Part shown: positions 24,363 through 59,640 of the stretch, piece by piece
How the letters are laid out: each line of letters starts with the position of its first letter
How positions within the stretch are numbered: position 1 is the first letter of the stretch
Assembly: GCA_002794035.1 (NCBI GenBank)
Contig: PCXQ01000001.1
Coordinates: 3,256-67,255, forward strand
Source: Candidatus Yanofskybacteria bacterium CG10_big_fil_rev_8_21_14_0_10_36_16
GTDB lineage: Bacteria > Patescibacteriota > Minisyncoccia > 2-02-FULL-40-12 > IGHO2-01-FULL-4-A
Direction: 5' to 3'
DNA: 64,000 bases
Made by a program: the position numbers and the translations under genes
The notes under the pieces: generated by a model
Told to the model about the DNA's origin: nothing
Seen by the model: the letters and a program-made list of their open reading frames with translations, nothing else
Database searches by the model: none

Positions 24363-24432
24363 TATGCGCGACGTCCTGACACTGCTGTGGAATGGGCGGA
24401 AGCTCATTCAGTATATATTTTTTTTTTAATTT

Positions 24433-33718: not shown

Positions 33719-33721
33719 TTA

Positions 33722-34366: not shown

Positions 34367-34389
34367 TTTATAGTTATTGATGTATTTAG

Positions 34390-35724: not shown

Positions 35725-35743
35725 AAATTAAAAACTTAAAAAC

Positions 35744-37531
35744 TTAAAAACTTTGATAATACTCCCTTATCATATTAGCCATTAATTTTTGTCTTTCTTC
35801 CAGAAATTTTTGATAATCAGTAACTTCCATATCTAACACACTTACTGGTATGGCATTTTCTTTCAAGTTGTTTTCAAGCTCATTCTTGTCTTTAATGCCA
35901 CTGTATTTGAAAACCCCATTTTCAAGATGTTCCAATATTTCAGTAAAGTATTGTTTGGGTGATTTTGCTCCGATTTTGATATTAATTTCACTTTGTGTGT
36001 AGGCAAAATTGGCTATTTGGTTGTAATCTCTCTGTTTTAGCTTGTTGCTTTCAAGATATTTTTTGGGAAATATATGGTGTATATCTCCACGATGTATAAT
36101 CATATCTCGTACTTTTATATCAGTGGAAAGAAAACCTCTTTTTCCTAATTTTACTTGTGCTGCCCAAAAAAGTTTTAAGTACGGACTGGATATACTAGAT
36201 TTAACTAAATCGCGCACCAGACCTTCTGACCAGAATGTATCTGATAATTCAGCCCTCTCTATTCCTTCAAGATATTTTTCAGCACGCTGCTCAACGATGT
36301 TTCTTATATCTGTATCAAATTGGCTTTCGGGAGACCCAGAGTATCTTCCTATTAGCAGCGACATTATGAGCCACTTGCTAACTATACGCTCTATTTCAGA
36401 ATCATTGTATTCTTGTGATCTCAATTTGAGATATAAAATATAAGCAAAGTTTAAAGCATTTTTTGAACGAATTAACCCGCTTACTTCAAACCCCGCTGCC
36501 TTAACTATCATAGAAAAGCGTTCATAATGAGTTTTGTTTACAAAATCTAATACGCCGTTTTTTAATTTATTATAAGAATCCTCAACGATGGCTTCTTCGT
36601 AAGCCCTTGTTTCAAAGTTTCTACCAGATAGTAAACTTACCAAATCCCTCAACCTTCCGCGATTAAACTCTTTAGTAAAGCCAACCCTAATAATATCGGT
36701 ATAATCTGGTTGATAAATGTCATCCTGCAAGTTTTTGGCCCAAAGTATTTTTTGATAATATTCTGTATTAGTAAAGTCATCACTGGCGGATTTAATATTT
36801 TCAATAAACTCCGGATGTCGCAGAGTATGCGCAAAGTAATCTATTGCTTTTCTTAGATTTATCCCAAAATCTCCAAATGCTGCGATTCGTGACATTGCAA
36901 AGTCGGCCTGACTTAACACAACCCCCTCGGAGTTAATCCTGATAAATATTTCAGTAACCGTTTCTATATCAAGATTTTCTTTTAACTCTATAAATCCGAG
37001 CTGCTTATCTTTGATAGAATAAAGCTTGTCAATGTTGTTTTGAATGGTTTGTAAGTCTGCTTTTGGATTTCTTTTTTTGTATTCGTCTACAAGCGCAAAA
37101 ATACCTCCCTCATTTTTCAAAAACTCCGAAATATCACCAATCCAATTAACATCTTTTTCAATCGCGGGTGTTAATGTTTCAAACTTTTCCTCAATGGGAT
37201 TGAAGGCAATCCTGATTCTCATTTTTCTATATTCCTTGTCTAAAACTTCTTCTCCGAGAATGGCTGCTCTTAGTGCCGTAATTCGCTGCTGTCCGTCTAT
37301 AACAATTTTTTTACCGGATGATAAACTGCCATCTTTTAGACGAATAGATGGGTTACGCCATACAATTATGTAGCCAACAGGAAAGCCTTTATAGATAGAA
37401 TCCATCAAATCCCTCACTTTAATTGAACTCCACACAAAGGGTCGTTGAATCTCTGGTATAGCAATTTCATTGGACTGAACCCAGCTTAAAATGTCTTTAA
37501 TAAAATATTGATTTATAATGTATTGTTGCAT
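35744..37531 (-). CDS. GmrSD-family Type IV restriction endonuclease (DUF262 + DUF1524)
   Basis: N-terminal IPEIQRPFVW and IDGQQRITAL (DGQQR, DUF262); C-terminal IHHIFPKKY His-Me finger (DUF1524). Start set at the MQQYI ATG, 4 bp after the res stop. Confidence 0.8.
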   Translation of the reverse strand: MQQYIINQYFIKDILSWVQSNEIAIPEIQRPFVWSSIKVRDLMDSIYKGFPVGYIIVWRNPSIRLKDGSLSSGKKIVIDGQQRITALRAAILGEEVLDKEYRKMRIRIAFNPIEEKFETLTPAIEKDVNWIGDISEFLKNEGGIFALVDEYKKRNPKADLQTIQNNIDKLYSIKDKQLGFIELKENLDIETVTEIFIRINSEGVVLSQADFAMSRIAAFGDFGINLRKAIDYFAHTLRHPEFIENIKSASDDFTNTEYYQKILWAKNLQDDIYQPDYTDIIRVGFTKEFNRGRLRDLVSLLSGRNFETRAYEEAIVEDSYNKLKNGVLDFVNKTHYERFSMIVKAAGFEVSGLIRSKNALNFAYILYLKLRSQEYNDSEIERIVSKWLIMSLLIGRYSGSPESQFDTDIRNIVEQRAEKYLEGIERAELSDTFWSEGLVRDLVKSSISSPYLKLFWAAQVKLGKRGFLSTDIKVRDMIIHRGDIHHIFPKKYLESNKLKQRDYNQIANFAYTQSEINIKIGAKSPKQYFTEILEHLENGVFKYSGIKDKNELENNLKENAIPVSVLDMEVTDYQKFLEERQKLMANMIREYYQSF

Positions 37532-37535
37532 AAAT

Positions 37536-40217
37536 CTATTTTTCCCAAAGTCGGGCCGCTTCATCAAAGCTTTTCGGCTTCTGTGATAGCTTATCCCAAT
37601 CTTCTTGTTTAATATAAAGCATTTTGTATTTAACGTCGTTCTGAATACTATTAACATCTTTTATCCATTGTTCCAAGCGTTTTATTTTCTCAACATCGTC
37701 TAAGTCTTCGCGGCCTTTGGTTTCTATGATGTACACTTCTTTTTCTGAAACCTTTACGAAAAAGTCCGGGTAGTAATTTGAAATATCACCACTGGCATTT
37801 CGGTAATCAATCCTAAAATTAACTGCGAAGTAGTTTTTAGCATAAGAAATTATATCTTCCACTCCATCAAGAAAACCGGCAAACTCAAGTTCAAAATGCC
37901 CATCTCCAACTATTTTATTAAATGCGCTTTTCTTCGGTACAAGATATGCTTGATCCTTCACGACAAATGGTCGGCTCTTACTAATCTTAATATAATTTTG
38001 GATCTCGGCCTCGCCCTTATCTACCACGGTCAATTCGTTTATCTTCTTCTTAAATGTTTCTGTTACTGTTTTGCTGGCTTCAAGCTCTGACAAATTACGC
38101 AAAGCATTAAGATCGTCCAACTGTATTTTTTTATCAAAAAGGTTGTTTTCAATAAACTCTTTTACTTGGCCGTATAGAATATCATAACCGCTAAATAACC
38201 GAAGCTCTTTCATAATAACATTGGTAAAATACCCTATAACACTTTGGTAATCTGGTATGAAATTACTATCTAACTCTGTCTTGTGAGTTATATCACCGCT
38301 GGTAATATCCCTGAATATAATTTCGCGCTTTTCTTCTTCTGAAAACTCCTTTAATTTAACTTTCTTGTGACCAAATGTTGAAACATCAAGGTCTGAAAGG
38401 TTTTTATATTCCCGATAAATACGCGGTGTAAGAATGGGTATTTGAATATCTAACCTCGGTATATCTTTTTTGGTGTTTTCATTATCAACCTCAACAACCA
38501 AAGGAGCTTTAGGTTCTGTGCCTTCTCCCATTTTTCTGTGCTCAAGCTCAACACCTTCACTTTTAATAGATTCCACAAAATCCATAAAAGCATCTGTGCC
38601 CACTACACTAACTAATTCCGGCACTTCTTCGTTGCGATACATTCGTCTTAACCCTCTTCCAAGTGTTTGTTCTGGCAATATGTTGCTCTTTGAAGAATAA
38701 GGCCGCAATCCAACAATGGTTGTAACATTACGGACATCCCAACCTTCTTTAAGCATTAACACGGAAACTATGGCCTTATAAGGATTATCAAAATTATCAA
38801 TCTTGTTTGCTGCTTCCCGCAGCTTTTTTAATTCCTCCTCATTTTTCCCAGTTGCGCTTTCGGATATTTCACCGTTATTTTTTGTATGAATTACTAATAC
38901 AGAGTTTTTAAACTCCGGATAAGTATTTTCAAGATATTCAGCAACTTCATCACCGTTCTTAGTATCGTCGGTCATTAAAAACAAAACTGCTTTTTTGCCC
39001 AGTTTTATATGTTCATCATAAACCTTTTTCCACTCCAAATAACCGAGATGGACATAGTCCTTGTATTTCTCACTGAACTTTGAACTTTTATGCTCTTGTA
39101 GCTTGGCTCGGCTTGCAGAATCGGGCAGGACCGGACGCTTTACTACGTTTTGGTGAATGGCTTCAACCAATGGGTAATCGCTTATTGTTTGAACAAATAT
39201 AGCTCCGTTATTATGTCTTGGGGTAGCTGTTACATCAATTTGTAAAGATAATTCTTTGCCTTTCATCTTGAGACGATTGTGTATATCTTCTATGGACTTA
39301 AACCACGCTAAACGGCCATCGTGGATATGGTGCGCTTCATCATTTAGTACAACCAGCTCATCTATATCTCTAACTATTACCCCAAGATCAACTTTTGATT
39401 CATTTGTTGCGCCAACTGGTTTTTCGCCAAGAAAATATCGGGCCGTGTTTTCATCTTCAAAACTCGCAGCACTGCTATTACTCTCATAAACCCGATGAAT
39501 GTTAGTTAGAAAAATGTTTCCAGTTTTTTTAACTACACCTATTTCGTCTTGAATATGCAAAGTTAATTGAAAATCATCCCGCCAATTTTGGCCTGCAAAA
39601 CCATTATCCGGAAGTACCGGGTCTTCAAAAAATATCTTTAAGCCGTCAAAATCAGACCTGATACGGTCTAAAACAATAATGTTGGGGGTGATAACCAAAA
39701 AGTTTCGGGCTAATTTTGAATCCTCTTCATAAAGTTTATGAAAGAAGCTCCAAGCAAGAAGTAAACTTAACACCTTTGTCTTGCCGCTTCCGGTTGCCAT
39801 TTTTATTACGAAACGTAACCAGGATTCTTCAAACATTCCTGCTGAAACTGCTCCGGAACTATCAAATCTTATAAGGTCGTATTTATCTTTTACTTTTGCT
39901 ACTTCGTGGAGATAAATGGTTGTTTCTACTGCTTCTCTCTGTCCAAAATAGTATTGAAAAAGAAAGGTCTCTCCATCTGTATTTTCTCTTGGGTGGTCTA
40001 TTTTAAACCACCATTTAAGTAACGCTTTACTTGTTTCACTTGCCCCTTCATAATCAGCATCTCGCCATTCTTTGACCTTCCTACGAAGTTGATCCACTAA
40101 AGGCGGTAAAAGCCGAGCATAGCCCTGTTCTCTTAATGTCTCGTCTGCCGGAAACCACCGGAGGTCCGGGTTTAAAATCTCGTGAGGTGATTGTGGAAAC
40201 TTAGGGTGTAGTGCCAT
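37536..40217 (-). CDS. res: Type III restriction-modification Res subunit (SF2 helicase-nuclease)
   Basis: MATGSGKTKV Walker A, NDEAHH DEAH box, C-terminal endonuclease region; downstream of mod. Confidence 0.8.
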   Translation of the reverse strand: MALHPKFPQSPHEILNPDLRWFPADETLREQGYARLLPPLVDQLRRKVKEWRDADYEGASETSKALLKWWFKIDHPRENTDGETFLFQYYFGQREAVETTIYLHEVAKVKDKYDLIRFDSSGAVSAGMFEESWLRFVIKMATGSGKTKVLSLLLAWSFFHKLYEEDSKLARNFLVITPNIIVLDRIRSDFDGLKIFFEDPVLPDNGFAGQNWRDDFQLTLHIQDEIGVVKKTGNIFLTNIHRVYESNSSAASFEDENTARYFLGEKPVGATNESKVDLGVIVRDIDELVVLNDEAHHIHDGRLAWFKSIEDIHNRLKMKGKELSLQIDVTATPRHNNGAIFVQTISDYPLVEAIHQNVVKRPVLPDSASRAKLQEHKSSKFSEKYKDYVHLGYLEWKKVYDEHIKLGKKAVLFLMTDDTKNGDEVAEYLENTYPEFKNSVLVIHTKNNGEISESATGKNEEELKKLREAANKIDNFDNPYKAIVSVLMLKEGWDVRNVTTIVGLRPYSSKSNILPEQTLGRGLRRMYRNEEVPELVSVVGTDAFMDFVESIKSEGVELEHRKMGEGTEPKAPLVVEVDNENTKKDIPRLDIQIPILTPRIYREYKNLSDLDVSTFGHKKVKLKEFSEEEKREIIFRDITSGDITHKTELDSNFIPDYQSVIGYFTNVIMKELRLFSGYDILYGQVKEFIENNLFDKKIQLDDLNALRNLSELEASKTVTETFKKKINELTVVDKGEAEIQNYIKISKSRPFVVKDQAYLVPKKSAFNKIVGDGHFELEFAGFLDGVEDIISYAKNYFAVNFRIDYRNASGDISNYYPDFFVKVSEKEVYIIETKGREDLDDVEKIKRLEQWIKDVNSIQNDVKYKMLYIKQEDWDKLSQKPKSFDEAARLWEK

Positions 40218-40218
40218 A

Positions 40219-40614
40219 TTAGGTCAATCTGTAGATATATGCGTCTTTAATAAAAATACCGTTAATGATGTTTGATTTAAATCTAATACCTGCTTTTGAC
40301 TGTTTTGATGTTTTTATCATTGTTCTCAAAAGTTTCAGAAAGTCATTATCGTGATGAAGTATTGTTATATTTGAAAGTCCGATGTCTTTTACTGTTTTTT
40401 CTTCCCCGAATTGATTGATGAAATCATTATAATTTTGCCGCGTATTTTTAATACGGTCATATTTTTTTGATGAAATTAATAATCTCCAAGCATCTGACTC
40501 GGGAACAAGTATCCAAAGAAAAACCGTTGGATTTATTTTTTGTTTATCCATCAAATCTAATAAGGTTTTTCCACTTTCAATTTTTGGTTCTTCTACCATA
40601 ATTTTTTTATCCAA
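40219..40614 (-). CDS. Hypothetical protein, partner of the HEPN protein (possible toxin/antitoxin component)
   Basis: 131 aa. Overlaps the HEPN gene by 22 bp and ends 1 bp before res. No clear MNT GS-x-D-x-D motif. Confidence 0.4.
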   Translation of the reverse strand: MDKKIMVEEPKIESGKTLLDLMDKQKINPTVFLWILVPESDAWRLLISSKKYDRIKNTRQNYNDFINQFGEEKTVKDIGLSNITILHHDNDFLKLLRTMIKTSKQSKAGIRFKSNIINGIFIKDAYIYRLT

Positions 40615-41030
40615 ACTAAAATACCCTTACGCCTATCTTTTATTGAGTTGATTAAAGCTTCTGCGTCAGTTTTCTTGCATATTCCATATCTGCTTTCTTC
40701 GGTCCAATCTTTAACCGTGCTCCAATTTGACTCAAAGCCCTTATCTTTGCCTGCTCTCTTATCAAAGGCCCACTTGATACCACTTACACTCAATAAGTCG
40801 TTTAAATCGTGACTATAGAGTTTCTGATAAACACTCTTTTTTGGAGGGAAGCTCTTTTCTTTGACATTTTTGCAATAGCAAGCCTTGAGGGCAAGTTCAA
40901 CGGCATAACCTGCTAAATAGTAAGCACCACTATACTCCTTATTATTAAAAAGGGTTATCGCTTCTCTGATGCGCCTCAATGCTAACTTTTTAAAATCACC
41001 GTATTCTGGATTGTCCCAAAATAAAGCCAT
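40593..41030 (-). CDS. HEPN-domain protein
   Basis: AYYLAGYAVELALKA helix and YSHDLNDLL motif typical of HEPN. Confidence 0.55.
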   Translation of the reverse strand: MALFWDNPEYGDFKKLALRRIREAITLFNNKEYSGAYYLAGYAVELALKACYCKNVKEKSFPPKKSVYQKLYSHDLNDLLSVSGIKWAFDKRAGKDKGFESNWSTVKDWTEESRYGICKKTDAEALINSIKDRRKGILVWIKKLW

Positions 41031-41033
41031 ACT

Positions 41034-43283
41034 TTATATACTAATCTCAATTATTTTCATTGTATCGTTACCGAAAATATCTACGACCTTTATGGCAATT
41101 TTACGTCTGCCTTTTGGTAATTCTTTATAAGCGGTTATAAACTCAAGGTTTCTGTCCTTTTTGGTTCTAAATGATTGCCATTCGTTTTCAAAAATGTAAT
41201 CGCCGGTCCATTGTTCTTCAATTTCTTCCTTTTCGTTTTTTATAGCCACAACTTCTTTTTTGCTTTCAAAGTTAAAGTCAACGGACCAGTAATCAATCCA
41301 ATCACTCCATTTTTCAGTCAAAACATCCCTTGTAACTACACCCTCTTTGTCTTTTGAGATTTTAATAATTTTACCATTTTCTACTACAAGCTTTTTGCTG
41401 CCGTTTTTGAGGCTTTCTTCTACCTCTTTAATTGAATCTTGATTATAAAAAACTGAAAAATCAGTTAACTCAATGGCCAATGAGTTCTTTTTTATATGAG
41501 GCTTAACTTCAATGTAAGATACGTCGTGAAAAACAACTTGGTTTTTTTCTACAGCCCGTTTGTCAAATACATCTCGTGGAATATATTTAAGGGCCAAATC
41601 AACACCTTGATTTTTGGCATCTTCTTGTATTCTCGGAAATAATCCCATTTCAAACTCAAAAGCCAATATGTCTACTTTAGTTATTTTCTTTTCAACTGCT
41701 TCTTTAATTACTTCTTCAACAAATAACCGAGTAACTGGCAAGTTAATTGGGCCAACAGATACTAATCTTGCAGATTTTTTACCGAAAAAGGTTTTGAAAT
41801 TATTAATTGGTTCTGCTTTGTATGCTGACAGGATTAAAGAAACAAAATCTTTTTCTTTCTGTGCGATTTGTTTTTGCTTTTGCTCGTCCCGAAGATTGGG
41901 GTTTATACCAACGTAATGCTGCCTTTCATATTTACCAAGATTTAATACTTCAAATGCCCGATAATCTTTCCCAGTCTTTTTAAGTTCTCGTTGCACTCCA
42001 ATCATTCTCTTGCGTGTTGTGTGAATTGAGAACTTACCCAAGTCAGAACCAATCCATTTGCGGCTTAGTTTTTCAGCTGCAGCAAGGGTGGTACCAGAAC
42101 CGACAAAGAAGTCGGCAACAAGATCGTCCTCGTTTGAAGAGGCCTTTATTATGCGCTCAAGTAAGGACTCTGGTTTTTGGGTTGGATAATTATTACGTTC
42201 TTTAGCCATTGGATTAACTGGATTTATATCTAGCCAAATATCTTCAGAAACATTTCCTTTAGTATCTTCGTAAAACCTTTTTACATATGGTAACCCACTT
42301 TCAGAAAAAACAATAAGTCCCCGTTTCATTCCTTCATCTATTCTTTCTTGAGACCATATCCAGTGTTTGCCTGCCGGTGGATACAGCAACTTTTCACCGA
42401 ATTTTTTTGCTTCACCTTGTCCCTTTTGAGTAAAATCAGCCAAAGAATATCTTTTTCCCGTTTGCTCATCGGTGTACCTGTAATGAGTTTTTAATAATTT
42501 TTCCGATTTCGGTAAAAATTGAGTATTAAAAATAGTCTTCTCTTTATCTTTTGAATAAAAGAAGACTGTATCATGTACGTTTGGATAAGTTTTTGACTGT
42601 GGCTTAGCCGATGTCAGTTTTTGCCAAATAATTTCATTTTTAAAATTATTAGTTCCAAATATCTCATCTAATACCAACCTCATGTAGCTGTTAACCCTCC
42701 AATCACAATGTACATAAATACTCCCGTTTGCGGCCAACAAATCTCGCATCAGTGAAAGTCGCTCGTAAATCATAGAGATAAAACTATCTGCTCCCTTGCC
42801 CCAAGTATCCCGATATGCTAATTCCTCTAATACTGTTGGTTGTTTCTTAAACTCTTCGCCCCCAACCTCAATATCCATAGAAAAATCTGCCCCAACATCA
42901 AAAGGCGGATCAATGTAGATAAGTTTAATGCCCCCATTAGCTTCAATTTCTTCTCGTAGGGGTCCATTTTTTAAGCTTGATAGGATTAGTTTGTTGTCAC
43001 CCCAAATAAGTTTATTAGTCCAGCCCTTGATTTGGCGGCCGCGCTGGTCAAAATCAAACAACACCTGCTGGCGCTTTACTTCCTTCTCACTTCTCGGCTC
43101 ATCAACCTGTTCAATAACCTGAAATGGCAAGATAACATTGGTGACTTCATTTGTCTTGCCGTTCCAGACAAGCTCAACCTCTCGTTTGTCCTCAAACAAA
43201 AGAAACCGGTACTTATCGGGAAGAGGTTTACCGGCTTCAATAAACTTTATAGCATCGCGTTTTTCATTGTCAGTTAGATCCAT
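41034..43283 (-). CDS. mod: Type III restriction-modification Mod subunit (beta-class N6/N4 DNA methyltransferase)
   Basis: DPPF (motif IV) precedes FFVGSGTTLAAA (motif I). 749 aa with a large target-recognition region. Confidence 0.8.
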   Translation of the reverse strand: MDLTDNEKRDAIKFIEAGKPLPDKYRFLLFEDKREVELVWNGKTNEVTNVILPFQVIEQVDEPRSEKEVKRQQVLFDFDQRGRQIKGWTNKLIWGDNKLILSSLKNGPLREEIEANGGIKLIYIDPPFDVGADFSMDIEVGGEEFKKQPTVLEELAYRDTWGKGADSFISMIYERLSLMRDLLAANGSIYVHCDWRVNSYMRLVLDEIFGTNNFKNEIIWQKLTSAKPQSKTYPNVHDTVFFYSKDKEKTIFNTQFLPKSEKLLKTHYRYTDEQTGKRYSLADFTQKGQGEAKKFGEKLLYPPAGKHWIWSQERIDEGMKRGLIVFSESGLPYVKRFYEDTKGNVSEDIWLDINPVNPMAKERNNYPTQKPESLLERIIKASSNEDDLVADFFVGSGTTLAAAEKLSRKWIGSDLGKFSIHTTRKRMIGVQRELKKTGKDYRAFEVLNLGKYERQHYVGINPNLRDEQKQKQIAQKEKDFVSLILSAYKAEPINNFKTFFGKKSARLVSVGPINLPVTRLFVEEVIKEAVEKKITKVDILAFEFEMGLFPRIQEDAKNQGVDLALKYIPRDVFDKRAVEKNQVVFHDVSYIEVKPHIKKNSLAIELTDFSVFYNQDSIKEVEESLKNGSKKLVVENGKIIKISKDKEGVVTRDVLTEKWSDWIDYWSVDFNFESKKEVVAIKNEKEEIEEQWTGDYIFENEWQSFRTKKDRNLEFITAYKELPKGRRKIAIKVVDIFGNDTMKIIEISI

Positions 43284-43371
43284 GGGCCATAGTAAGATAA
43301 CTTTTACTTAAAGGGTATCACTTTTGTGCTGTTTTTTAAAGGTCTGAAAAAGAGCGTTGAGGGCGTTGACA

Positions 43372-43785
43372 CTAAACGAGAAATTGAGCGACAAACCAGA
43401 TGCCGGCAGTAATTAAAAACCATATCAACTGATTGGCTTCCCTAAAATCTCCGGAGCGGTAGTAGCGGCCAACTTGGGTTACGGTAAATATCGCGGCAGT
43501 CATCGGGATAAAGTTAAATGGAATATCAAATCTAAAGGACACGAGATAATATACGATTATTAAAGCTACCGCTTCGGAAAAACCCGAAAAGCGTGATTTT
43601 AAAATATCGCTATGTTTATCTAACAACCCTTTGAATGGGGCATAAATGAACATAGCAATAATTGGACTAATGGCTGCGATATAAAACAATGAGAATAAGG
43701 CCCATAAGAATGGCAAAAATATAAAAGAAGAAATAATAACTATACCCCATAGCAGTAAACTAATTTTTGATTTTATTACATCCAT
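43372..43785 (-). CDS. Hypothetical 4-TM membrane protein
   Basis: Start taken at MDVIKSK. The track's upstream extension is encoded by the hairpin cluster. Confidence 0.35.
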   Translation of the reverse strand: MDVIKSKISLLLWGIVIISSFIFLPFLWALFSLFYIAAISPIIAMFIYAPFKGLLDKHSDILKSRFSGFSEAVALIIVYYLVSFRFDIPFNFIPMTAAIFTVTQVGRYYRSGDFREANQLIWFLITAGIWFVAQFLV

Positions 43786-44012
43786 AAAATTACAAAACCC
43801 GCCGCTAGGCGATGGATTTCTCCACCTGTTACCCTTTCGGGTAACAACCACTGCTGGTGCTCCTAAACGACGGGTTTAGTACCCAGCAGTGGTTTTTACG
43901 TCATACCTCAAATGTTGACATTTTGAGGGTTAGGCAATTTTTAGTTGTTAGACCAATATTATCACAAAACCTTGAAAATCTCCATAATTTTCGTTTTACT
44001 TAAATTAATACT

Positions 44013-44768
44013 ATGGCCTTAATTAACGACAAACAATTTAAACAATTTTTAGAACTCCTAATAAATAAGGTTGAATTAAGAAACGATATTCATTTGGGAA
44101 TACAATACCGTGAATTAATCCAAATATTTTTAGATGATAACGCTATCAAAGATTATTTGCGCTATTCTGAAAATAAGAAGTTGTTAAAATTAATAGGCAT
44201 ATCTAAATATAAAGAAAAGGAAGATCCTTACCCTGATGATTATTATATAAACGAGATAACGCCTAACAATGATTTTATAGGCCCGAAAAGATATTATGCC
44301 GTAAAGAGGTATATACGGTATAATTTCTACCCAAAGGACAACTTTATACTTGATGTGTCTGATAAAAAAATTAAAGGTTTTTATAAGCAGTATCAAAAAG
44401 AAGGTCCGGGGCAAGACCCAAAACGGCTAATTTCCAAAAATAAAAGTGCTTATTTTTATAAATCAAAACAAATAGTTTTTGACAGTGAAGAAACTGACTA
44501 CTTCAGAGTATTTGATGTCCTTTACGAAAATAGTGGGCAAGACAACTTTTTGTCATATGAAAATATAGATAAAGAAATGGTCCGAAGGGGCTCGCCAAAA
44601 CTTATAGATGATCAACAAAAAATTAAACGTATTCATAATGCAGTTAAGAACTTATTTTTATATTCTCGTTGCGGAAGTGAAAAGCTAAAAAATACTACGC
44701 CCAATAAAACTGAACTAATAAAAAAGGTTAGAGGGAGAGGGTGTGTTTTCAATAACCCTCTAATTTAA
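44013..44768 (+). CDS. Hypothetical protein (first gene of the plus-strand element module)
   Basis: 251 aa; Lys/Tyr-rich; no motif recognised. Confidence 0.35.
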   Translation: MALINDKQFKQFLELLINKVELRNDIHLGIQYRELIQIFLDDNAIKDYLRYSENKKLLKLIGISKYKEKEDPYPDDYYINEITPNNDFIGPKRYYAVKRYIRYNFYPKDNFILDVSDKKIKGFYKQYQKEGPGQDPKRLISKNKSAYFYKSKQIVFDSEETDYFRVFDVLYENSGQDNFLSYENIDKEMVRRGSPKLIDDQQKIKRIHNAVKNLFLYSRCGSEKLKNTTPNKTELIKKVRGRGCVFNNPLI

Positions 44769-44792
44769 TAAGTTATCTCTCAATTTCTTGTG

Positions 44793-44820
44793 GACAGCCA
44801 AATATCGGCTGTCTTTTTTT
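44793..44820. terminator. Intrinsic terminator
   Basis: GACAGCC-aaatatc-GGCTGTC followed by T8. Confidence 0.7.
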
Positions 44821-44899
44821 CTTTTTTTACTTGGTTTTAGCGGCCAAAGAGATAAACGGAGAAATTAAAAGATATTAAATATTGATTCAAAATTAAATT

Positions 44900-45526
44900 A
44901 TGCAACCAATAATTAAAACTTTTACTGAACCGGATTGGGATTATCTGTTTTGGACTTGGGATTTAGAAAAACAATGGCAGGAGTCATTGCCAAGGCCAAC
45001 TGAACGAGAGTTGTTAGGTATTTTCCCGGAAGCAAAAAAGATATTGCCGGCATTATTAAGGGACTGGCAACAAAGAAAAAGTGAATTAACCAAAGAACTG
45101 GCTCGGAAATTAAAAATAGTAAAACTTGGCGCGGATAGCGACAGCGAAAGATTTTTCTGGACTGAATGGCTGAAAACAAAATATTTAGGAGAAATTACTG
45201 AAATCGTTAATGACATTAAAAAGTTCAAGAGAATGATGGCTATATCAAACAACCGGGGCCGAGCCTTACGAAGCGAAGAGTCATTGCAAAAGGCTTTAGC
45301 TGTGCCAATAGCATCGGCTATCCGAATTAAACTAAGAAAATTGGGTAATAAACTTGTTGGGCTGTGTCCCCTACATAACGAGAGTAACCCATCATTTTAT
45401 ATCTATACCGATACTAATTCCTTTTATTGCTACGGATGTGGCAAGGGTGGAAATGTAATCAACTTGGTTAGATTTCTACACGATTACACATTCCCAGAAG
45501 CAATAAAGTATTTAACTAATTTATAA
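44900..45526 (+). CDS. CHC2 zinc-finger (DnaG-primase-type) protein
   Basis: C-terminal CPLHNESNPSFYIYTDTNSFYCYGCGKGGNVINLV matches the primase CHC2 Zn-binding module. Confidence 0.6.
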   Translation: MQPIIKTFTEPDWDYLFWTWDLEKQWQESLPRPTERELLGIFPEAKKILPALLRDWQQRKSELTKELARKLKIVKLGADSDSERFFWTEWLKTKYLGEITEIVNDIKKFKRMMAISNNRGRALRSEESLQKALAVPIASAIRIKLRKLGNKLVGLCPLHNESNPSFYIYTDTNSFYCYGCGKGGNVINLVRFLHDYTFPEAIKYLTNL

Positions 45527-45609
45527 CTTTTGTTTCTTGTTCGGGCTCTTGGCAAAGGCCATAGTAAGCTCCGGCCAGGAGCTCAAACAAGAAACGCGGA
45601 GCTTACTTT

Positions 45610-47154
45610 ATGTCAAACAACCAAAACAATGAAAAACAAAATAAGGAAGGGCGGAAACCACAAGCAACCAAAATCGTAGAATTGGTCAGTGAAAGCAACA
45701 TAACCCTATTCCATAACGAGTTAAAACAGCCCTATGCCTATATTGAAATAAATAACCATAGCGAAATATGGCCCTGTGAAAGCAGGCAATTTAAGGACTG
45801 GCTGGGACACATATTTTGGAATAACGAAGGAAAATCTGCCTATCCTAATGCGATAAACGGTGCGCTATCAACATTAAGAGCCAAGGCGCTTTACGAAGGA
45901 CAGAAGTATAAACTAAACAACCGAGTAGCAATCAAAGACGGTGCAATTTGGTATGACCTTTCTAACAATAACTGGGAAGCGGTCCGTATAAGCAAAAATG
46001 GATGGCGAATCATAGGCAACCCTCCTATCATATTTCAGCGCTTTTCTCATCAGCAAGAACAATTAACCCCGGTACCAGAAGGAAATATAAAGGATGTCTT
46101 ATCGCTAATCAATGTAAAAAAAGAACACCAACTGCTTTTATTGGTTTACTTAGTATCCTGTTTTATTCCGGACTTTCCCCATCCGATATTGGTGGTTCAC
46201 GGGCCTCAAGGCTCATCAAAATCAATGCTATCCAAAGTTCTTAAAAGCTTAGTTGATCCATCTGTATTAGAAACTTGCGACTTCCCTGCAAGTAAAGCGG
46301 AACTGGCTCAAATACTATCCCACCATCACTATGTTGTCTTTGATAATCTCTCGTACCTATCAGATTCAAATTCCGACATTCTATGCCGTGCTGTTACCGG
46401 AGGAGGATTTTCAAAACGGGAACTCTACACGAACGACGAAGACGTAATACACCTATTTAAGCGTTGCATAAACCTCAACGGCATAAATCCGGTGGCAACA
46501 AAACCAGACCTGCTAGAACGAAGCATATTACTGGAATTAGAAAGGATACCCAATGAAAAAAGGAAAAAAGAGACAGATATTTTGCAGCAATTTGAAACCA
46601 AGAGACCAGAAATATTAGGGGCAATCCTAAACACAGTTGCCAAAGCAATGGAGATTAAAGAATCAATAAAAGTAACTGGATTGCCGCGGATGGCGGATTT
46701 TACAGAGTGGGGTTGCGCTATCGCTGAAGCAATAGGACATCCAAAAGAAGAGTTTTTATCTTCTTATTTTGAAAACATAAAGTCGCAAAATGACCAGGTT
46801 ATTTATGATAGCCCTGTTTGCAGTACTCTTTTGAGCTTAATGAAGGAGCGAGAGCAATGGAATGGAACAGCAACGCAACTTTTATCTGAGTTAATTGAAG
46901 AGGCGGAAAGGTTAAATATCAACACAAAAGAAAAAGGCTGGCCCAAATCAGCAGCGTCATTAAGCGGTAAATTAAATAACTATAAAACCAATCTTGAAGA
47001 AGCCGGTATAAAAATAAATCGTTTTGATGAAAACAGGCAAAGACAATTATCTATCAGCAATGATTCTGCTATTGAGAGCCAGGCCGGCAACGGATTAGCC
47101 GAAGAAGACGATAGAGACGCTGCAACGCTCTCAACGCTCTTTCCCGAGCATTAA
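45610..47154 (+). CDS. P-loop NTPase replication protein (phage/plasmid primase-associated SF3-helicase-like)
   Basis: VVHGPQGSSKS Walker A; hhhhDN Walker-B-like VVFDNL. Sits next to the CHC2 primase finger gene. Confidence 0.5.
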   Translation: MSNNQNNEKQNKEGRKPQATKIVELVSESNITLFHNELKQPYAYIEINNHSEIWPCESRQFKDWLGHIFWNNEGKSAYPNAINGALSTLRAKALYEGQKYKLNNRVAIKDGAIWYDLSNNNWEAVRISKNGWRIIGNPPIIFQRFSHQQEQLTPVPEGNIKDVLSLINVKKEHQLLLLVYLVSCFIPDFPHPILVVHGPQGSSKSMLSKVLKSLVDPSVLETCDFPASKAELAQILSHHHYVVFDNLSYLSDSNSDILCRAVTGGGFSKRELYTNDEDVIHLFKRCINLNGINPVATKPDLLERSILLELERIPNEKRKKETDILQQFETKRPEILGAILNTVAKAMEIKESIKVTGLPRMADFTEWGCAIAEAIGHPKEEFLSSYFENIKSQNDQVIYDSPVCSTLLSLMKEREQWNGTATQLLSELIEEAERLNINTKEKGWPKSAASLSGKLNNYKTNLEEAGIKINRFDENRQRQLSISNDSAIESQAGNGLAEEDDRDAATLSTLFPEH

Positions 47155-47186
47155 TAAAACAAGGGGTACTACCCATAACTTAAGTT

Positions 47187-47558
47187 ATGCAGTGTAAATA
47201 CATAAAAAATAATAAAAAACAGTGCGGAGCAAACGCAATGCTCAAAAACAGTTATTGCTTTTATCATAATCCGGATGTCAAAAAAGCAGATAAAAAAGAG
47301 GCTCAATCAAGAGGTGGTAAGGGCAATAAAAGTAGAGTTAGTGAAACTCTTCCGCCAATAACTTTCAAGAAGTCCCGAAACGTCGTCGGATTGCTTGAGG
47401 AAACTATTAATTTGGTTAGGGCAGGAAAAATGGAAATACGAGTTGCTAACTGCATAGGATACTTGTCGGGCCACATCATCAAGGCAATTGAGGTTTCAGA
47501 GCTTACGCAACGCCTACAGGAAGTTGAGAAAAAAATAGAAATAAAATGGCAGGAATAA
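47187..47558 (+). CDS. Hypothetical protein with N-terminal Cys cluster
   Basis: CKYIKNNKKQCG...CFYH. Confidence 0.3.
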   Translation: MQCKYIKNNKKQCGANAMLKNSYCFYHNPDVKKADKKEAQSRGGKGNKSRVSETLPPITFKKSRNVVGLLEETINLVRAGKMEIRVANCIGYLSGHIIKAIEVSELTQRLQEVEKKIEIKWQE

Positions 47559-47836
47559 CTTTATCTACAATAAAAAGATTAGAGAAAAAAGCCGAAGAAT
47601 TAAGGGCGGCAAATCCAATAGTGGACCGGGTCATAACTGTTCCTTGGCCTTTAGAGATTTATAGCGAAGAGGGAGAAAGATTTATCCAAGAGGAAATTGA
47701 GCGGCGAAATCAAATTAGGAAAGAATCCGGTATTTATTCCGAAGGTCCTTTCTACGTGATTATGCCGGGTAGAATGCCTCAATGGGTGGCCGAAGAAGAA
47801 TGGAGGAAACAAGAAGAGGCAGAGAAACTTAAATAA
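47546..47836 (+). CDS. Hypothetical protein
   Basis: 96 aa, overlaps the previous gene by 13 bp; charged and helical. Confidence 0.3.
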   Translation: MAGITLSTIKRLEKKAEELRAANPIVDRVITVPWPLEIYSEEGERFIQEEIERRNQIRKESGIYSEGPFYVIMPGRMPQWVAEEEWRKQEEAEKLK

Positions 47837-47864
47837 TTTCCAATTTTAAGTTATAATGAGTAAA

Positions 47865-47959
47865 CTACACAAAAACCCAAATAGTAGTCAAGACCTTGAA
47901 CATAACGAGGGGCAACGAGGGTTTTTGTGTAGTAACAAAACTTCTTGTCGTTGCCCCTC
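47865..47959 (+). promoter_or_regulatory. Two overlapping alternative hairpins upstream of the serine recombinase gene
   Basis: Hairpin A has a 14-bp perfect stem: CTACACAAAAACCC (47865-47878) pairs with GGGTTTTTGTGTAG (47919-47932). Hairpin B has a 12-bp stem: GAGGGGCAACGA (47907-47918) pairs with TCGTTGCCCCTC (47948-47959) and is followed by TTTGTGCT. A's 3' arm sits inside B's loop. Confidence 0.45.
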
Positions 47960-48058
47960 TTTGTGCTATAAGGCGTCCTCTGTTTTAGATCCCAAGTCAT
48001 TAGAACAAGCATATTTTAGAATTTTTGACTGGGTTTTAGAAAACAAGGACAGTAAATT

Positions 48059-49702
48059 ATGGAAAAAACAAAAAGATTAGCTGCTCTATATGGTAGAGTA
48101 AGCACATCAAACCAAGAGGACCAGAAAACAATTGAGAACCAAGTTGATGCTCTTAATGAGTTAGCGAACAAAAATGATTTTACCATTGTTCAAGAATATA
48201 AAGATGATGGTTGGTCCGGAGATATTTTAGCCAGACCGGCCCTTGATCAGCTAAGGCAAGATGCAAAAAGTAAAATATGGGATACTTTGTTAATTTACGA
48301 TCCGGATAGGTTGGCCCGAAGATACTCATACCAGGAGTTGATTATGGACGAGTTAAAAGAGGCCGGGGTTGAAGTGATATTTATTACTGTATCTGCACCA
48401 AAAAATCCTGAAGATAAGATTTTGCATGGAGTTCGGGGGTTATTTGCAGAATATGAGAGGGTACGGATTACAGAACGTTTTCGTTTAGGAAAGCTCCGCA
48501 AGGTAAAAAACGGCCATGTATTAACAACGGAAGCCCCTTATGGCTATAACTACATAAGAGGAGACAGAGAAAGGCAAATACACGGTTATTATAAAATTAA
48601 CCCCGAGGAAGCAGAGGTTGTAAAAAAGATTTTTCAGTGGATTGGGGATGAAAAACTAAATATCAGAGCTGTTGTAAGAAAATTAAAAGAAGTAGGAATT
48701 AAACCAAGAAAAGCCAAAAGAGGTGTTTGGGCTACGAGCACAATATCAACAATGCTAAAAAACGGGGCTTATATTGGAGAGGCACATTGGGGTAGTTCGT
48801 ATGCAGTAGTACCCGAAAATCCAATCAAAAAAGAGAAGTATAAAAAAATGAAAAAAAGTAGCCGGAGAATAAAACCGAAAGAAGATTGGATAGCATCTAA
48901 AATACCTGTACCTGCCATAATAACCAAGGAGCTGTTTGCAAAGGTACAAAAACAACTAAAAACAAATTCCTCTCTATGTCCAAGAAATAAAAAATATACA
49001 TATCTACTAGGCGGCAAAATACATTGTGTATGCGGTAAAACCAGAAGTGGAGTAGGCCCACAGCGCGGTAAGCATCTATACTATCGCTGTAATGACAGGA
49101 TTTATAGCTTTCCTATACCTCCTACCTGTAAAGAACAAGCCATCAATGCAAGGATAGCTGATGAATTAGTTTGGAATAAAATAGCAAATCTTATGAGTTC
49201 ACCGGAATTGTTAAAAAACCAAGCAGAAAAATGGTCTGATTCTCGCAAGGTGGGGGCAAGATCTCATATTGGCGATATAGAAACAACAGAAAAGGAAATA
49301 TTAAAGTTAAAAGCACAGGAGGATCGCTATAATAAAGCATATGGTGCCGGGGTGTTTGATATAAACCAATTAAAAGAGTATGTTGCTCCGGTAAGAGAAC
49401 GAATAGAATTGTTAAAATCCCAAATAGTCAAAATCAAACAGGAAGAAAACCAGTCGCAAGACAATGCCCTCCCCTCGCTAGATGAAATCCGGTCATTTAC
49501 GAAAGTAACAAGAAATGCTTTATTTAACTTGAATTTTGAAATGAAAAGAGCCACAATTTTAAATGTTATAGATAAAATTATCGGTACACAAAAACAATTG
49601 AAGGTGTATGGTCAAGTGCCGATAACACAAAATTATGTCACATACAAAACTAGCTATCGGTATAGTCGGGTTGCCCAATGTTGGAAAATCAACATTATTT
49701 AA
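48059..49702 (+). CDS. Large serine recombinase (integrase)
   Basis: LAALYGRVSTSNQ catalytic Ser, resolvase fold, recombinase domain, CxxC zinc ribbon (CVCGK...CNDR), coiled-coil. The 3' end overlaps ychF by 68 bp. Confidence 0.85.
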   Translation: MEKTKRLAALYGRVSTSNQEDQKTIENQVDALNELANKNDFTIVQEYKDDGWSGDILARPALDQLRQDAKSKIWDTLLIYDPDRLARRYSYQELIMDELKEAGVEVIFITVSAPKNPEDKILHGVRGLFAEYERVRITERFRLGKLRKVKNGHVLTTEAPYGYNYIRGDRERQIHGYYKINPEEAEVVKKIFQWIGDEKLNIRAVVRKLKEVGIKPRKAKRGVWATSTISTMLKNGAYIGEAHWGSSYAVVPENPIKKEKYKKMKKSSRRIKPKEDWIASKIPVPAIITKELFAKVQKQLKTNSSLCPRNKKYTYLLGGKIHCVCGKTRSGVGPQRGKHLYYRCNDRIYSFPIPPTCKEQAINARIADELVWNKIANLMSSPELLKNQAEKWSDSRKVGARSHIGDIETTEKEILKLKAQEDRYNKAYGAGVFDINQLKEYVAPVRERIELLKSQIVKIKQEENQSQDNALPSLDEIRSFTKVTRNALFNLNFEMKRATILNVIDKIIGTQKQLKVYGQVPITQNYVTYKTSYRYSRVAQCWKINII

Positions 49703-53974: not shown

Positions 53975-54382
53975 ATGGGTTGGATAATTAAAATCGTTGC
54001 TTTTGTTGCCGTGGTTTCTTTAACTAGTGGTTTTGTTATAACTAAAGTTCCTGATCTAAAGCAAAAAGTGGTTGAATATATAAACCCAGCAGAAAAAGAA
54101 AGACGTATATTGGGAGAACTGGACCAGGTGCTTGAAGATTTGGAAGATACAGCAATGCAAGTAAGCGATTTTGACAGCCCTGAAGAGGTTCGGGAAAAAA
54201 TTTCTAAGGCGGCAGAACTTATAAACAAGGCTCAAGATTTAAGATTGCAGGCTCAGGAAGCAAATGATAAGGATCAAGGTCTTGTAAGATCCGGAATGAC
54301 TCGAATTATTGATTCCTTTACTAGCAAGACAATTCCTGAAATTACAGATGAGTTGAAAGCCGAGATATGCAAAGAGCAGTAG
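53975..54382 (+). CDS. Hypothetical membrane-anchored coiled-coil protein
   Basis: N-terminal TM helix, acidic helical remainder. Confidence 0.35.
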   Translation: MGWIIKIVAFVAVVSLTSGFVITKVPDLKQKVVEYINPAEKERRILGELDQVLEDLEDTAMQVSDFDSPEEVREKISKAAELINKAQDLRLQAQEANDKDQGLVRSGMTRIIDSFTSKTIPEITDELKAEICKEQ

Positions 54383-54464
54383 TAAGTAGCATGTAGCAAG
54401 TATTATGCAAAAAAATCTAGATTTTAATCTAGATTTTTTATTCTTGCTACTGACTACTGGCTAC

Positions 54465-54540
54465 TAAAACAATAGTGGTGGGATTTTTGAGTCTACTAAA
54501 AATATTATAAGTCCGATTATCGCGCCAACGGCCGATATCA
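54465..54540. repeat. Direct repeat copy 1 (76 bp, duplicate of the mraY 3' end)
   Basis: Identical in sequence to 54688-54763. Confidence 0.9.
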
Positions 54541-54687
54541 ACACAAAAGTCGCGGGCCCCTCCCTCGCTGGCTAGGGATCCACTCCCGCTCCTTGAAACC
54601 TTGCGGTTTCAATACTTCCACTATGGGGAAACACCCAGTTTCCCCAGCCCCCCTTCTGATTTCGGATGATATCAGTTTTTTGTTGAT
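54541..54687. other. 147-bp GC-rich structured insert between the repeat copies
   Basis: Minus-strand reading contains GGGGAAAC-UGGGU-GUUUCCCC and UUGAAACC-GCAA-GGUUUCAA (GNRA loop) hairpins closed by GGCUGG / CCAGC. Confidence 0.5.
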
Positions 54688-55760
54688 TAAAACAATAGTG
54701 GTGGGATTTTTGAGTCTACTAAAAATATTATAAGTCCGATTATCGCGCCAACGGCCGATATCATCCAAAATCTCATGGTGATTTGGGTTTCATGCCAGCC
54801 CTTGGCCTCGAAATGGTGGTGTATGGGAGTAGATAGGAAAATCTTTTTGCCTCGTAATTTTTTTGAGGTTATTTGAACTATCACAGATAAAGATTCACCA
54901 ACAAACACTAGGGCTATAATTGGTAAAAGCAAAGCGGTATTGGTTAGCATGGCAATAATACCCAGAACAACCCCCAAAGACATTGACCCCGTGTCGCCCA
55001 TAAAAAATTTGGCAGGATAAATATTGAACCACAAAAATGCTACAAGAGCTCCCATGATGGATGCTATAAACACAACGAGATCCATCCTTTCTTGAACAAA
55101 AGCTATTGCGCCATAAGCGGCAAACATGGTTAAGAAGGTTCCACCAGCAAGTCCATCAAGGCCATCAGTTTCATTTGCTGAAAATGCAGTCGCTACGATA
55201 ATAAATATAAAGAATGGAATGTACCACCACCCTATTGCCATGTCTCCTGCAAAAGGTATGTTTATTGAATTAAAGTCCAATTTAAAGAAGAACCACCATG
55301 CACCTCCTGTAGCAACAAGGAGGTAAAGACCTATTCTGTGGCGCATTTTAAGGCCTCCTCCGTTAGGTCCTATTCGAAATACTCCAAAAAGATCATCTGC
55401 CAACCCAAACATTGCAGCAACAAAAAGAGCGCCTAATGGCAACAGTGTCTGTGCACGAGATAGAAAATTCCAATCAGACCAAGTTCCGTTGTAAAGGCTG
55501 GCAAAAAAAGAAAAACCAAGAGTTACGATTATTACAGTTGCCCAAACTACTACCCCGCCCATAGTGGGTGTTCCTTCTTTTTTTTTGTGCAGTTTATTAA
55601 AAATGGGTGCCGAATCGCTTCCTTTTAATTGCTTGCCAAGATTGTTTTTTTGGATAACTTTATTCCATGCGGGTGTTAATATTATTGCAATAAAAAAAGA
55701 TAGTGTCGCCACCACGAAAACTCTGACAACGTTAAAAACAGTAAATGTTTCGCCTATCAA
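54687..55760 (-). CDS. mraY: Phospho-N-acetylmuramoyl-pentapeptide transferase
   Basis: GTPTMGG motif, 10-TM architecture, conserved Asp-rich loops. Confidence 0.85.
   Translation of the reverse strand: MIGETFTVFNVVRVFVVATLSFFIAIILTPAWNKVIQKNNLGKQLKGSDSAPIFNKLHKKKEGTPTMGGVVVWATVIIVTLGFSFFASLYNGTWSDWNFLSRAQTLLPLGALFVAAMFGLADDLFGVFRIGPNGGGLKMRHRIGLYLLVATGGAWWFFFKLDFNSINIPFAGDMAIGWWYIPFFIFIIVATAFSANETDGLDGLAGGTFLTMFAAYGAIAFVQERMDLVVFIASIMGALVAFLWFNIYPAKFFMGDTGSMSLGVVLGIIAMLTNTALLLPIIALVFVGESLSVIVQITSKKLRGKKIFLSTPIHHHFEAKGWHETQITMRFWMISAVGAIIGLIIFLVDSKIPPLLF
54688..54763. repeat. Direct repeat copy 2 (last 25 codons of mraY)
   Basis: Begins immediately after the mraY stop triplet at 54687-54689. 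Confidence 0.9.
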
Positions 55761-59246: not shown

Positions 59247-59340
59247 GTAATAAATATGCCAAAAATTAAGCTAAATTTCAAGTCACTCTAAATATTTATT
59301 ATGTTCTTATAACATTAAATTATGGTTAAGAAAAAGTAAT

Positions 59341-59640
59341 GGCCCCGCACTTCTTGGTGCGGGGCACGGGGTTGGAGGTTGGGGTCGCCTAGTGAAGGCG
59401 GCCGGCGTGAATGGGTTCAAACCGGATCGGATGAGCCCACAGAGATTCGATCGCGACGCTCCCAAGAGCTCGCGCCTCCTCGGACGAGATTGCCAGAAGC
59501 CCCAAGGGAACCTCCGGAAAAGACTGTTCCTCCTCCTCTGGAGTTCTTCGGCCTCGCCGTTTCTCGTTTCCCCTGACCTTGCGAGGCCAGGAGACATCAT
59601 CTCTCTGCATCTTCTGCATGGGAAATCCTCCTACTATTTA
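59341..59640. other. About 300-bp GC-rich island (candidate structured RNA or foreign fragment)
   Basis: Sharp GC jump; ORFs in four frames overlap one another. Begins with the perfect hairpin CCCCGCAC-ttcttg-GTGCGGGG. An RBS-like AGGAGGA then ATG lies on the minus strand. Confidence 0.3.

Follow-up and report, generated by a model that had tools for sequence, protein, structure and literature searches.

We examined 64,000 nucleotides of Candidatus Yanofskybacteria bacterium CG10_big_fil_rev_8_21_14_0_10_36_16 (contig PCXQ01000001.1; the whole of this stretch is called the window below), in which the 3' end of mraY, the gene of phospho-N-acetylmuramoyl-pentapeptide transferase, occurs twice, on both sides of a GC-rich insert. 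The insert is, with high probability, one copy of a previously undescribed family of mobile elements of the Patescibacteria (candidate phyla radiation, CPR), which are GC-rich, non-coding and only 84-150 bp long. Each copy carries a conserved hairpin core, followed by a short segment complementary to the site at which that very copy resides, and is flanked by direct repeats of the end of its host gene. When the family, this anatomy and a choice of the insertion site by base pairing are taken together as one statement, the evidence tilts slightly in its favour. A guide-directed RNA mechanism, considered by itself, is a tentative proposal.

The duplicated mraY end and the family of elements

The sequence-only reading of this region had described a perfect 76-bp repeat around a 147-bp GC-rich insert, and this is exactly what was found. 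The two copies of the repeat (54465-54540 and 54688-54763) are identical at 76/76 positions, with a start-to-start spacing of 223, and form the sole long local direct repeat within the 64-kb window. The insert between them (54541-54687, 147 bp) has a GC content of 52% (55% in its core part), against a window mean of 36% (standard deviation of 6.4% per 100 nt). The host gene (54687-55760, minus strand) is intact, with an open reading frame (ORF) of 357 aa assigned to PF00953, whose product is 74-77% identical to MraY proteins of Yanofskybacteria/Paceibacterota. The repeat copy at 54688-54763 (DR2, minus strand) is contiguous with this ORF and represents the 3' end in use, as had been recognized earlier. 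It comprises the last 24 2/3 codons and the TA of the stop codon, and the C-terminus that it encodes aligns to the end of MraY homologues. The repeat begins at the second base of the stop codon, which reads TAA in the copy in use and TAG in the displaced one. The displaced copy (DR1, 54465-54540, minus strand) is disused: it lies beyond the stop codon of mraY, +1 out of frame with the gene, and the next base on the minus strand is a G, which completes its TAG stop. DR1 abuts the native downstream flank (54378-54464), a long bidirectional terminator hairpin with a perfect 14-nt inverted repeat at 54410-54439, which is common to mraY and a convergent ORF of 135 aa (53975-54382). Searches of Rfam return spurious matches of this hairpin (54378-54465) to miRNA families.

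The structure at the mraY end is not an assembly artefact, an explanation that had been named in advance as one that could overturn the reading. It is spanned whole, at 100% identity, by three independent assemblies from different samples (ENA ERZ27293400, k141; ENA ERZ27293414, contig L099; JGI 3300025850, contig L103), and k-mers of k=141 exceed the length of the 76-bp repeat. Contigs of three further assemblies (JGI 3300004210, JGI 3300004209 and Logan SRR6240789) end 30-60 nt inside one copy of the repeat, as is expected of short-k assemblers at true repeats. A fourth contig (JGI, 92.8 kb) encodes an identical MraY, and at least five samples have yielded assemblies of this strain.

The 74-nt core of the insert (54585-54658, plus strand) recurs, at 81-94% identity to 54586-54658, in seven metagenome contigs, which represent six other distinct loci. 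Six of these contigs (L083-L088) were obtained by one metagenome scan with a two-hairpin pattern, and the seventh (L093) by comparing the translated core with a database of predicted proteins, in which its frames gave one match only (P0001). A covariance model of the core (R1) scores 82-99 bits on all members (97 bits, E=5e-22, for the window), and finds no further core in the 64 kb of the window nor in 80 related mraY loci. The core is therefore rare, is present here as a single copy, and is not an mraY trait of the clade. The comparison of mraY ends in relatives, which had been suggested as a check, revealed neither the core nor a duplicated gene end in any of these loci (0/80). No real match to the insert was found in phage and plasmid collections, and scans of IMG/VR returned one chance match inside a coding region (L002) and otherwise none. 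An inverted match downstream of mraY in L047 was rejected as a chance similarity inside the next gene.

The seven loci, including that of the window, share one architecture at different genes. Besides the mraY 3' end, with its perfect repeat of 76 bp, the element occupies the 3' end of rplR within a ribosomal operon (L084; perfect repeat of 72 bp), the 3' end of trxB (L085; about 99 bp), the 5' end of rnhA (L086; about 40-75 bp), the 3' end of an unnamed gene seen as one locus in two samples (L083/L087; 30 bp), the 3' end of a tRNA (L088; 19 bp) and the 3' end of another unnamed gene (L093; perfect repeat of 31 bp). Across the loci, the flanking gene-end duplications are of variable length (19-100 bp), the DNA between the repeats is non-coding and 84-150 bp long at all seven, and the element can lie either with or against the direction of host transcription. 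Two earlier claims gain from these data. Integration at the end of a gene with restoration of the coding end is borne out by six other loci, each with its own gene-end duplication, and by filled and empty alleles of rplR (see below); the option that the insert is a miniature element is upheld by the presence of the 74-nt core at these six distinct loci. An RNase P RNA of class A (128 bits) is encoded at L086 242-614 (plus strand), about 500 nt from the element-bearing rnhA locus.

The member in L093 represents a minimal form of 84 bp, from which the variable hairpin described below is missing. Positions 325-554 of this contig hold two identical tandem units of 115 nt (the 84-nt minimal element plus the 31-nt gene end), as unequal or Campbell-type recombination would give. 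Behind them lies the native gene end, a third copy with 84% identity. The tandem also creates the spurious 77-aa ORF (P0001) through which the contig was found.

The order of the parts is the same at all loci. In the orientation of the plus strand of the window it runs: displaced gene end, 0-9 nt of filler, (G)TCGCTCC, the core, a target-specific segment of 9-26 nt, a spacer of 0-40 nt, and the gene end in use joined to the gene body. In the window, a non-homologous filler of 9 nt (ACACAAAAG, 54541-54549, plus strand) lies between DR1 and the conserved start (G)TCG. The left end of the element (TCGC...) and a variable GC-rich hairpin occupy 54550-54584 (plus strand), as delimited by alignments of the members, and the core is followed by the target-complementary segment GATTTCGGATGATATCAG (54658-54675, plus strand) and the spacer TTTTTTGTTGAT (54676-54687, plus strand), whose final base is the third base of the TAA stop in use. 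The filler pairs at 7/9 positions with the spacer, and no source for either was found among the sequences compared. The insert contains no tRNA or tmRNA called by ARAGORN, and a scan for promoters and terminators found nothing within it.

The core of the window consists of GCTCC, hairpin H1 (54593-54612), TACTTCCAC, hairpin H2 (54624-54646) and CCCCTTCTG. The motifs TTGAAACC-TTGC-GGTTTCAA of H1 (54593-54612) and GGGGAAAC-ACCCA-GTTTCCCC of H2 (54625-54645) are each unique in the window. The two tight hairpins described earlier are indeed present; both are perfect, and both are part of the minimum-free-energy fold of either strand. By contrast, the GGCUGG/CCAGC helix that was thought to close them lies outside the predicted fold and is not conserved in the relatives. 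Nor is the proposed GNRA loop conserved: some members have GCAA or GAGA as the loop on the minus strand, others UAGG or UAUG. The consensus of the core reads GCTCC, H1 TTGAAACC-N4-GGTTTCAA, TWCTTCCRC, H2 GGGGAAAC-N5-GTTTCCCC, CCCCTTCTG, and both of its hairpins have 8-9 bp. The variable GC-rich hairpin, which accompanies (G)TCGCTCC in most members, differs in sequence between them. H2 is closed by a T-A pair in three members and by C-G in another three, and in L093 its stem is exchanged in a compensated manner (GGGGAAAC/GTTTCCCC to GGGAAAAC/GTTTTCCC); H1 is invariant. The ends of the element (on the left (G)TCGCTCC, on the right CCCCTTCTG and the target-specific segment) are not complementary to one another across the members. 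The core is fused in frame with the displaced gene end in L084 only, and not in the window or L085.

A third option raised earlier, that of a structured RNA, holds in part: the hairpins covary and the wobble pairs described below point to pairing as RNA, but no Rfam family matches. The only overlap with the insert in a search of the window at E<=10 was isrF, with 9.5 bits (gathering score 40, E=2.2), and five other members gave no match within the element at E<=1.

The target-complementary segment

At every locus, the 9-26 nt directly after CCCCTTCTG read as the reverse complement of the element's own target, across the boundary between repeat and gene body. This feature was not among the observations of the sequence-only reading. 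In the window, 54658-54675 is the reverse complement of 54755-54772 (minus strand), a target that straddles the insertion point between 54763 and 54764, with 15/16 positions matching (P=0.0005 against shuffles). The match is significant at all seven loci (P=0.0005-0.006 each, against shuffles). No target motif is common to the junctions of different loci.

The complementary helix lies within the minimum-free-energy structure at 5/5 loci folded, and in the minus-sense fold of the window the segment and its target form a helix of 18 bp with two G.U pairs. All seven transition mismatches (two in the window, four in L084 and one in L083) are G.U pairs when the minus-sense strand is read; on the plus-sense strand, not one of them is. 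The minus-sense folds are also the more stable ones at 5/5 loci folded (in L084, -85.7 versus -54.9 kcal/mol). The pattern of wobbles and these predicted stabilities thus point to a helix whose pairing matters as RNA of host-gene sense, at least for insertions at 3' ends.

Two further regularities concern the junctions. The segment ends exactly at the boundary between repeat and gene body at 4/7 loci. Furthermore, at all seven loci the filler of the left junction is as long, to within 1 nt, as the stretch of gene body that lies under the segment (filler/covered bases of 9/9, 6/5, 4/3, 1/0, 0/0, 0/0 and 0/0-1); the filler is not a copy of this stretch.

Filled and empty alleles and exchange between lineages

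Among the six contigs that encode the L18 protein of L084, both states of the rplR site were recognized in sister samples (ERZ27254763 versus ERZ27254767 and others). L108 carries the exact empty site, with a 67-nt rplR-rpsE spacer and the native TAG stop, whereas L084 and L105-L107 contain an additional block of 204 bp, composed of 132 nt of new sequence and the 72-nt duplicate of the gene end. Filled and empty alleles differ by 0-1 mismatch in 3.2 kb of flanks. Since they sit in strain-identical contigs, the population is polymorphic for the element.

Both repeat copies of L084 and the empty allele are identical (72/72), but between the complementary segment and the resident target there are 3-5 differences. 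These mismatches suggest that the segment came with the element and was not copied from the resident target at insertion. The observation argues that the segment pre-dates the insertion; a long residence with homogenization of the repeats would be an alternative.

Three older loci bear the traces of more than one lineage. Their repeat copies differ at 11 synonymous versus 2 non-synonymous codons, and 12/14 of the substitutions are at third positions. Because the differences are mostly synonymous, both copies have been shaped by selection on the protein, and they therefore represent orthologous ends of different lineages, and not the end of one gene beside a duplicate in decay. The codons ACG and GCG occur in the displaced copy of L085 but never in the resident trxB (0/12 and 0/24; GC3 of 0.13), and so at this locus it is the displaced copy that is foreign. 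In L086, the displaced copy retains the native ATGA overlap with the upstream gene, and the copy in use has a different N-terminus, 3 aa longer.

The last six nucleotides of the core (TTTCTG), together with the complementary segment, are found to the left of both copies in L085 (5176-5194 and 5424-5442), which suggests that a site with an existing scar of the element was invaded a second time. This duplicated stretch, the lineage signal and the tandem of L093 all fit Campbell-type or double-crossover exchange anywhere within shared homology. Under such exchange, the boundaries of the repeats would be expected at the end of the gene, since homology between lineages stops there. A sister or empty mraY allele was not found among 5.8 billion proteins, the nearest MraY being 77% identical; with so distant a nearest relative, the perfect 76-bp repeat of the window is either of resident origin or homogenized.

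Proposed mechanism, alternatives and known systems

We propose that the cassette would enter a conserved gene near its end, at a position fixed by pairing of the internal segment with the target, and that the terminal 19-100 bp of the gene would end up on both sides of it. Since the complete gene end is kept, the element would be tolerated even in essential genes. The pairing partner would most likely be RNA of gene sense (the minus strand of the window), which might be copied or recombined into DNA by a trans-encoded factor. The repeats would then permit precise loss of the element, its re-entry by homologous (Campbell-type) recombination and its transfer between related lineages. Three parts of this scheme are presumed, namely that the segment picks the site (rather than being made at insertion), that there is an RNA intermediate and that any enzyme takes part. 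A bolder version would regard the element as a self-contained programmable insertion RNA, with the hairpins as the scaffold on which a trans-encoded enzyme acts and the 9-26 nt beside them as a wobble-tolerant guide. An RNA or single-stranded DNA copy would then be written in at the guided point while the gene end is resynthesized; we consider this version speculative and rather doubtful.

Several points weigh against the proposed mechanism. No gene of a reverse transcriptase, HUH nuclease or DDE transposase was found in about 80 kb (genes of the window plus flanking contigs), nor was a DEDD, TnpB or IscB gene seen in these 80 kb of genome; the element itself has no ORF. The only recombinase of this region is a large serine recombinase (48059-49702) in an unrelated island 5 kb away. 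The element is present in a single copy in 64 kb, and eight contigs that carry it are known in all. A simple scheme in which the empty site is cut does not work, because the occupied allele retains an intact target at the junction of DR2 and the gene body. Co-transcription with the host is not general either, as the minus-sense strand in L086 (at a 5' end) is antisense to the host gene. The mechanism leaves unexplained how a new target and a matching segment arise together, as well as the position of the second repeat boundary, which falls 0-12 nt from the stop codon or at the 3' end of the tRNA. The direction of the change at rplR cannot be told from the polymorphism, because recombination between the repeats would regenerate an empty allele. 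Finally, the conservation of H1 is partly a matter of ascertainment, since the search pattern that yielded six of the contigs fixed the sequences of the stems.

Two alternatives survive best, although both appear unlikely. According to the first, the core is a structured module of the 3' untranslated region (UTR) that serves its host, in which the long-range helix with the coding end and the two hairpins would stabilize or regulate the transcript, and which is spread by homologous recombination only, without mobilizing itself. At 6/7 loci the 3' UTR of the host gene does contain the core, read in mRNA sense, the wobble bias (seven G.U pairs in mRNA sense versus none) indicates a helix kept as RNA, and no mobility enzyme was found in the 80 kb; repeat copies of different lineages are likewise compatible with the transfer of alleles by recombination. 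However, recombination cannot place the core with a newly matched segment at mraY, rplR, trxB, rnhA and a tRNA, a UTR module needs no second copy of the gene end, and in L086 the member occupies a 5' end and has the opposite sense. Nor is the module a conserved regulatory trait of mraY, since it is absent from the 80 related mraY loci.

The second alternative concerns the origin of the complementary segment, which might be a by-product of insertion: the 3' end of the target would fold back, copy 9-26 nt and switch to the element as template, the whole event being an accident of template switching or retro-insertion. This would account for the exact end of the segment at the repeat/gene-body boundary at 4/7 loci, which resembles run-off at a break, for the restriction of variable filler to the opposite junction, and for the constant register at the CCCCTTCTG junction. 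It requires three successive template switches, however, and sits poorly with the event in L084, which looks recent and yet shows the 3-5 differences between segment and resident target. The strand-biased wobbles (7:0) also suggest maintained pairing, rather than a neutral relic.

A less probable alternative is that a DDE transposon of the IS1634/IS1549 type gave rise to a miniature form, which is mobilized by a transposase in trans and duplicates its target through a staggered cut. IS1634 and IS1549 make direct repeats of 8-514 bp (PMC2266710), a range of variable lengths that covers the 19-100 bp found here. The perfect repeats in the window, L084 and L093, and the presence of resident sequence in both repeat copies of L084, are in line with such a cut. 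In contrast to these insertion sequences, the element has no terminal inverted repeats (its left end being TCGCTCC and its right end the target-specific segment), and no transposase gene was found in the 80 kb. A staggered cut explains neither the target-complementary, guide-like segment (7/7 loci) nor the anchoring of the repeat at the gene end in every case, nor repeats of different lineages such as the foreign N-terminus in L086 and the foreign codon usage in L085.

It is very improbable that the insert is the remnant of an integrase-mediated island or prophage at the mraY 3' end whose interior was later deleted, an option that the sequence-only reading had left standing beside the miniature element. 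Duplication of a gene or tRNA end with restoration of the gene is the classic signature of integrase-mediated integration, and one member does lie in a tRNA gene (L088), while the window encodes the serine recombinase at 48059-49702. Nevertheless, seven independent deletions would be needed, each leaving the same 84-150 bp, the repeat copies being that far apart at every locus and the smallest member having just 84 bp. A repeat of 19-100 bp and a new target each time are unlike a fixed att core, and the rplR alleles differ by exactly the small block of 204 bp. The serine recombinase belongs to a separate island by ychF, and serine integrases make no long repeats. Islands and prophages of tyrosine integrases, which target the 3' ends of tRNA, tmRNA or protein genes, share with the element the insertion at conserved gene ends (tRNA targets included), the flanking gene-end repeat and a gene that stays functional. 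They differ from it in that the element, at 84-150 bp, has no integrase or cargo between the repeats at any of the seven loci, varies in target and repeat length from copy to copy without a fixed att core, and contains the internal complementary segment.

An artefact of assembly, which the breaks of several short-read assemblies inside the repeat might suggest, and a plain tandem duplication carry negligible probability, given that the same architecture is found in seven unrelated contigs and that a tandem should read A-B-A-B, whereas A-B-A with a foreign, GC-rich B is seen.

The proposed guide-directed insertion has parallels among elements targeted by base pairing, such as group II introns (EBS/IBS), IS110/IS1111 elements (bridge or seek RNAs) and TnpB/IscB systems (omega RNAs). 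The element has in common with them a structured scaffold adjoining a 9-26 nt complement of the target, whose tolerance of wobbles suggests pairing as RNA. Unlike these systems, it has no cognate protein nearby, it duplicates tens of base pairs of the target, and its guide changes with each copy to fit that copy's own site; moreover, the Rfam families of group II introns and omega RNAs do not match it. In organelles, mobile ORFs or homing endonucleases (e.g. Allomyces atp6) supply a new C-terminal coding segment, while the old one persists downstream as a pseudo-end. Such insertions resemble the present loci in the duplicated gene end, one copy of which is foreign with mostly synonymous differences, in the intact gene, and in the spread to the homologous site in other lineages. 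The element differs in its bacterial host, its far smaller size, the lack of an ORF or endonuclease, and the possession of a hairpin core and complementary segment.

Miniature inverted-repeat transposable elements (MITEs), repetitive extragenic palindromes and their doublets (REP/REPIN) and palindromes derived from IS200/IS605 are likewise small, non-coding, rich in hairpins and presumably mobilized in trans. MITEs, however, have terminal inverted repeats and duplications of 2-10 bp, where the element has no such repeats and duplications of 19-100 bp, while REPINs and IS200/605 derivatives make no duplication and reach many copies per genome, in contrast to the long repeats and the one copy per 64 kb seen here. 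Single strands that fold into a likeness of the target duplex serve as substrates in CTX-phi (attP(+)) and in integrons (attC). In a similar way, the stem between the segment and the gene end repeats the sequence of the chromosomal target, which would be consistent with a small single-stranded circle entering in the Campbell manner; the element nevertheless lacks a dif- or attI-like conserved site and has a new target for each copy.

Several other candidates were rejected. Splicing of the group I/II type does not agree with the bases at the junctions, the absence of an Rfam match or the occurrence in both orientations to host transcription. An HDV-like or hammerhead ribozyme core was rejected by inspection, as there is no P1 partner and no conserved CUGANGA/GAAA core. 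RelE-like UA/G cleavage, considered as the cause of the boundary within the stop codon in the window and L084, misfits L085, L087 and L093. A diversity-generating retroelement does not accord with the identical repeats of the window, the absence of a reverse transcriptase in the 80 kb, targets that are housekeeping genes or a tRNA, and the synonymous third-position changes of the older copies. A CRISPR array was dismissed because there are only two copies of a host coding sequence and the tandem units of L093 are identical 115-mers.

No element of this kind was found described in the literature, either in CPR bacteria or elsewhere, and the combination of a tiny scaffold, an "address" proper to each copy and a gene-end duplication in place of a short target duplication apparently defines a new class. 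If our reading is correct, a mobile element of 84-150 nt can live in essential genes (mraY, rplR, trxB, tRNA) without harm, and bears a sequence matched to its own insertion site. It would then be a natural analogue of guide-directed, template-copying insertion, reduced to a non-coding unit of 84 nt in bacteria with minimal genomes, and possibly a minimal programmable insertion system of practical interest. This raises the questions of which trans-acting enzyme reads the scaffold, whether the address is used as RNA and how a new address arises. The family also accounts for one type of contig break, and of "duplicated gene ends", in assemblies of CPR metagenomes, and may serve as a marker of recent gene flow between CPR lineages.

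Some other features of the window deserve mention. An integrated defence/mobile island adjoins ychF (about 33700-49700), with the serine recombinase (48059-49702) at its edge. Its genes encode NERD, PIF1 helicase, GmrSD, a ResIII/TnsA-like helicase, HEPN, an N6_N4 methyltransferase and a DnaG zinc-ribbon protein, and it also holds several ORFs annotated without function. A LOOT RNA (RF03000) lies within the island at 43811-43936 (minus strand; 86 bits versus a gathering score of 46). A second GC-rich island, with 60-67% GC against 36% and probably foreign, was noted at 59330-59620. It resembles a small ORF on the minus strand, to which one JGI assembly assigns 76 aa, with GGAGG as ribosome-binding site near 59625 and, at 59341-59366, a terminator formed by a GC hairpin. 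Finally, a perfect 22-nt direct repeat (GCGGAAGCTCATTCAGTATATA) is present in an intergenic region as two copies 56 nt apart (24340-24361 and 24396-24417).

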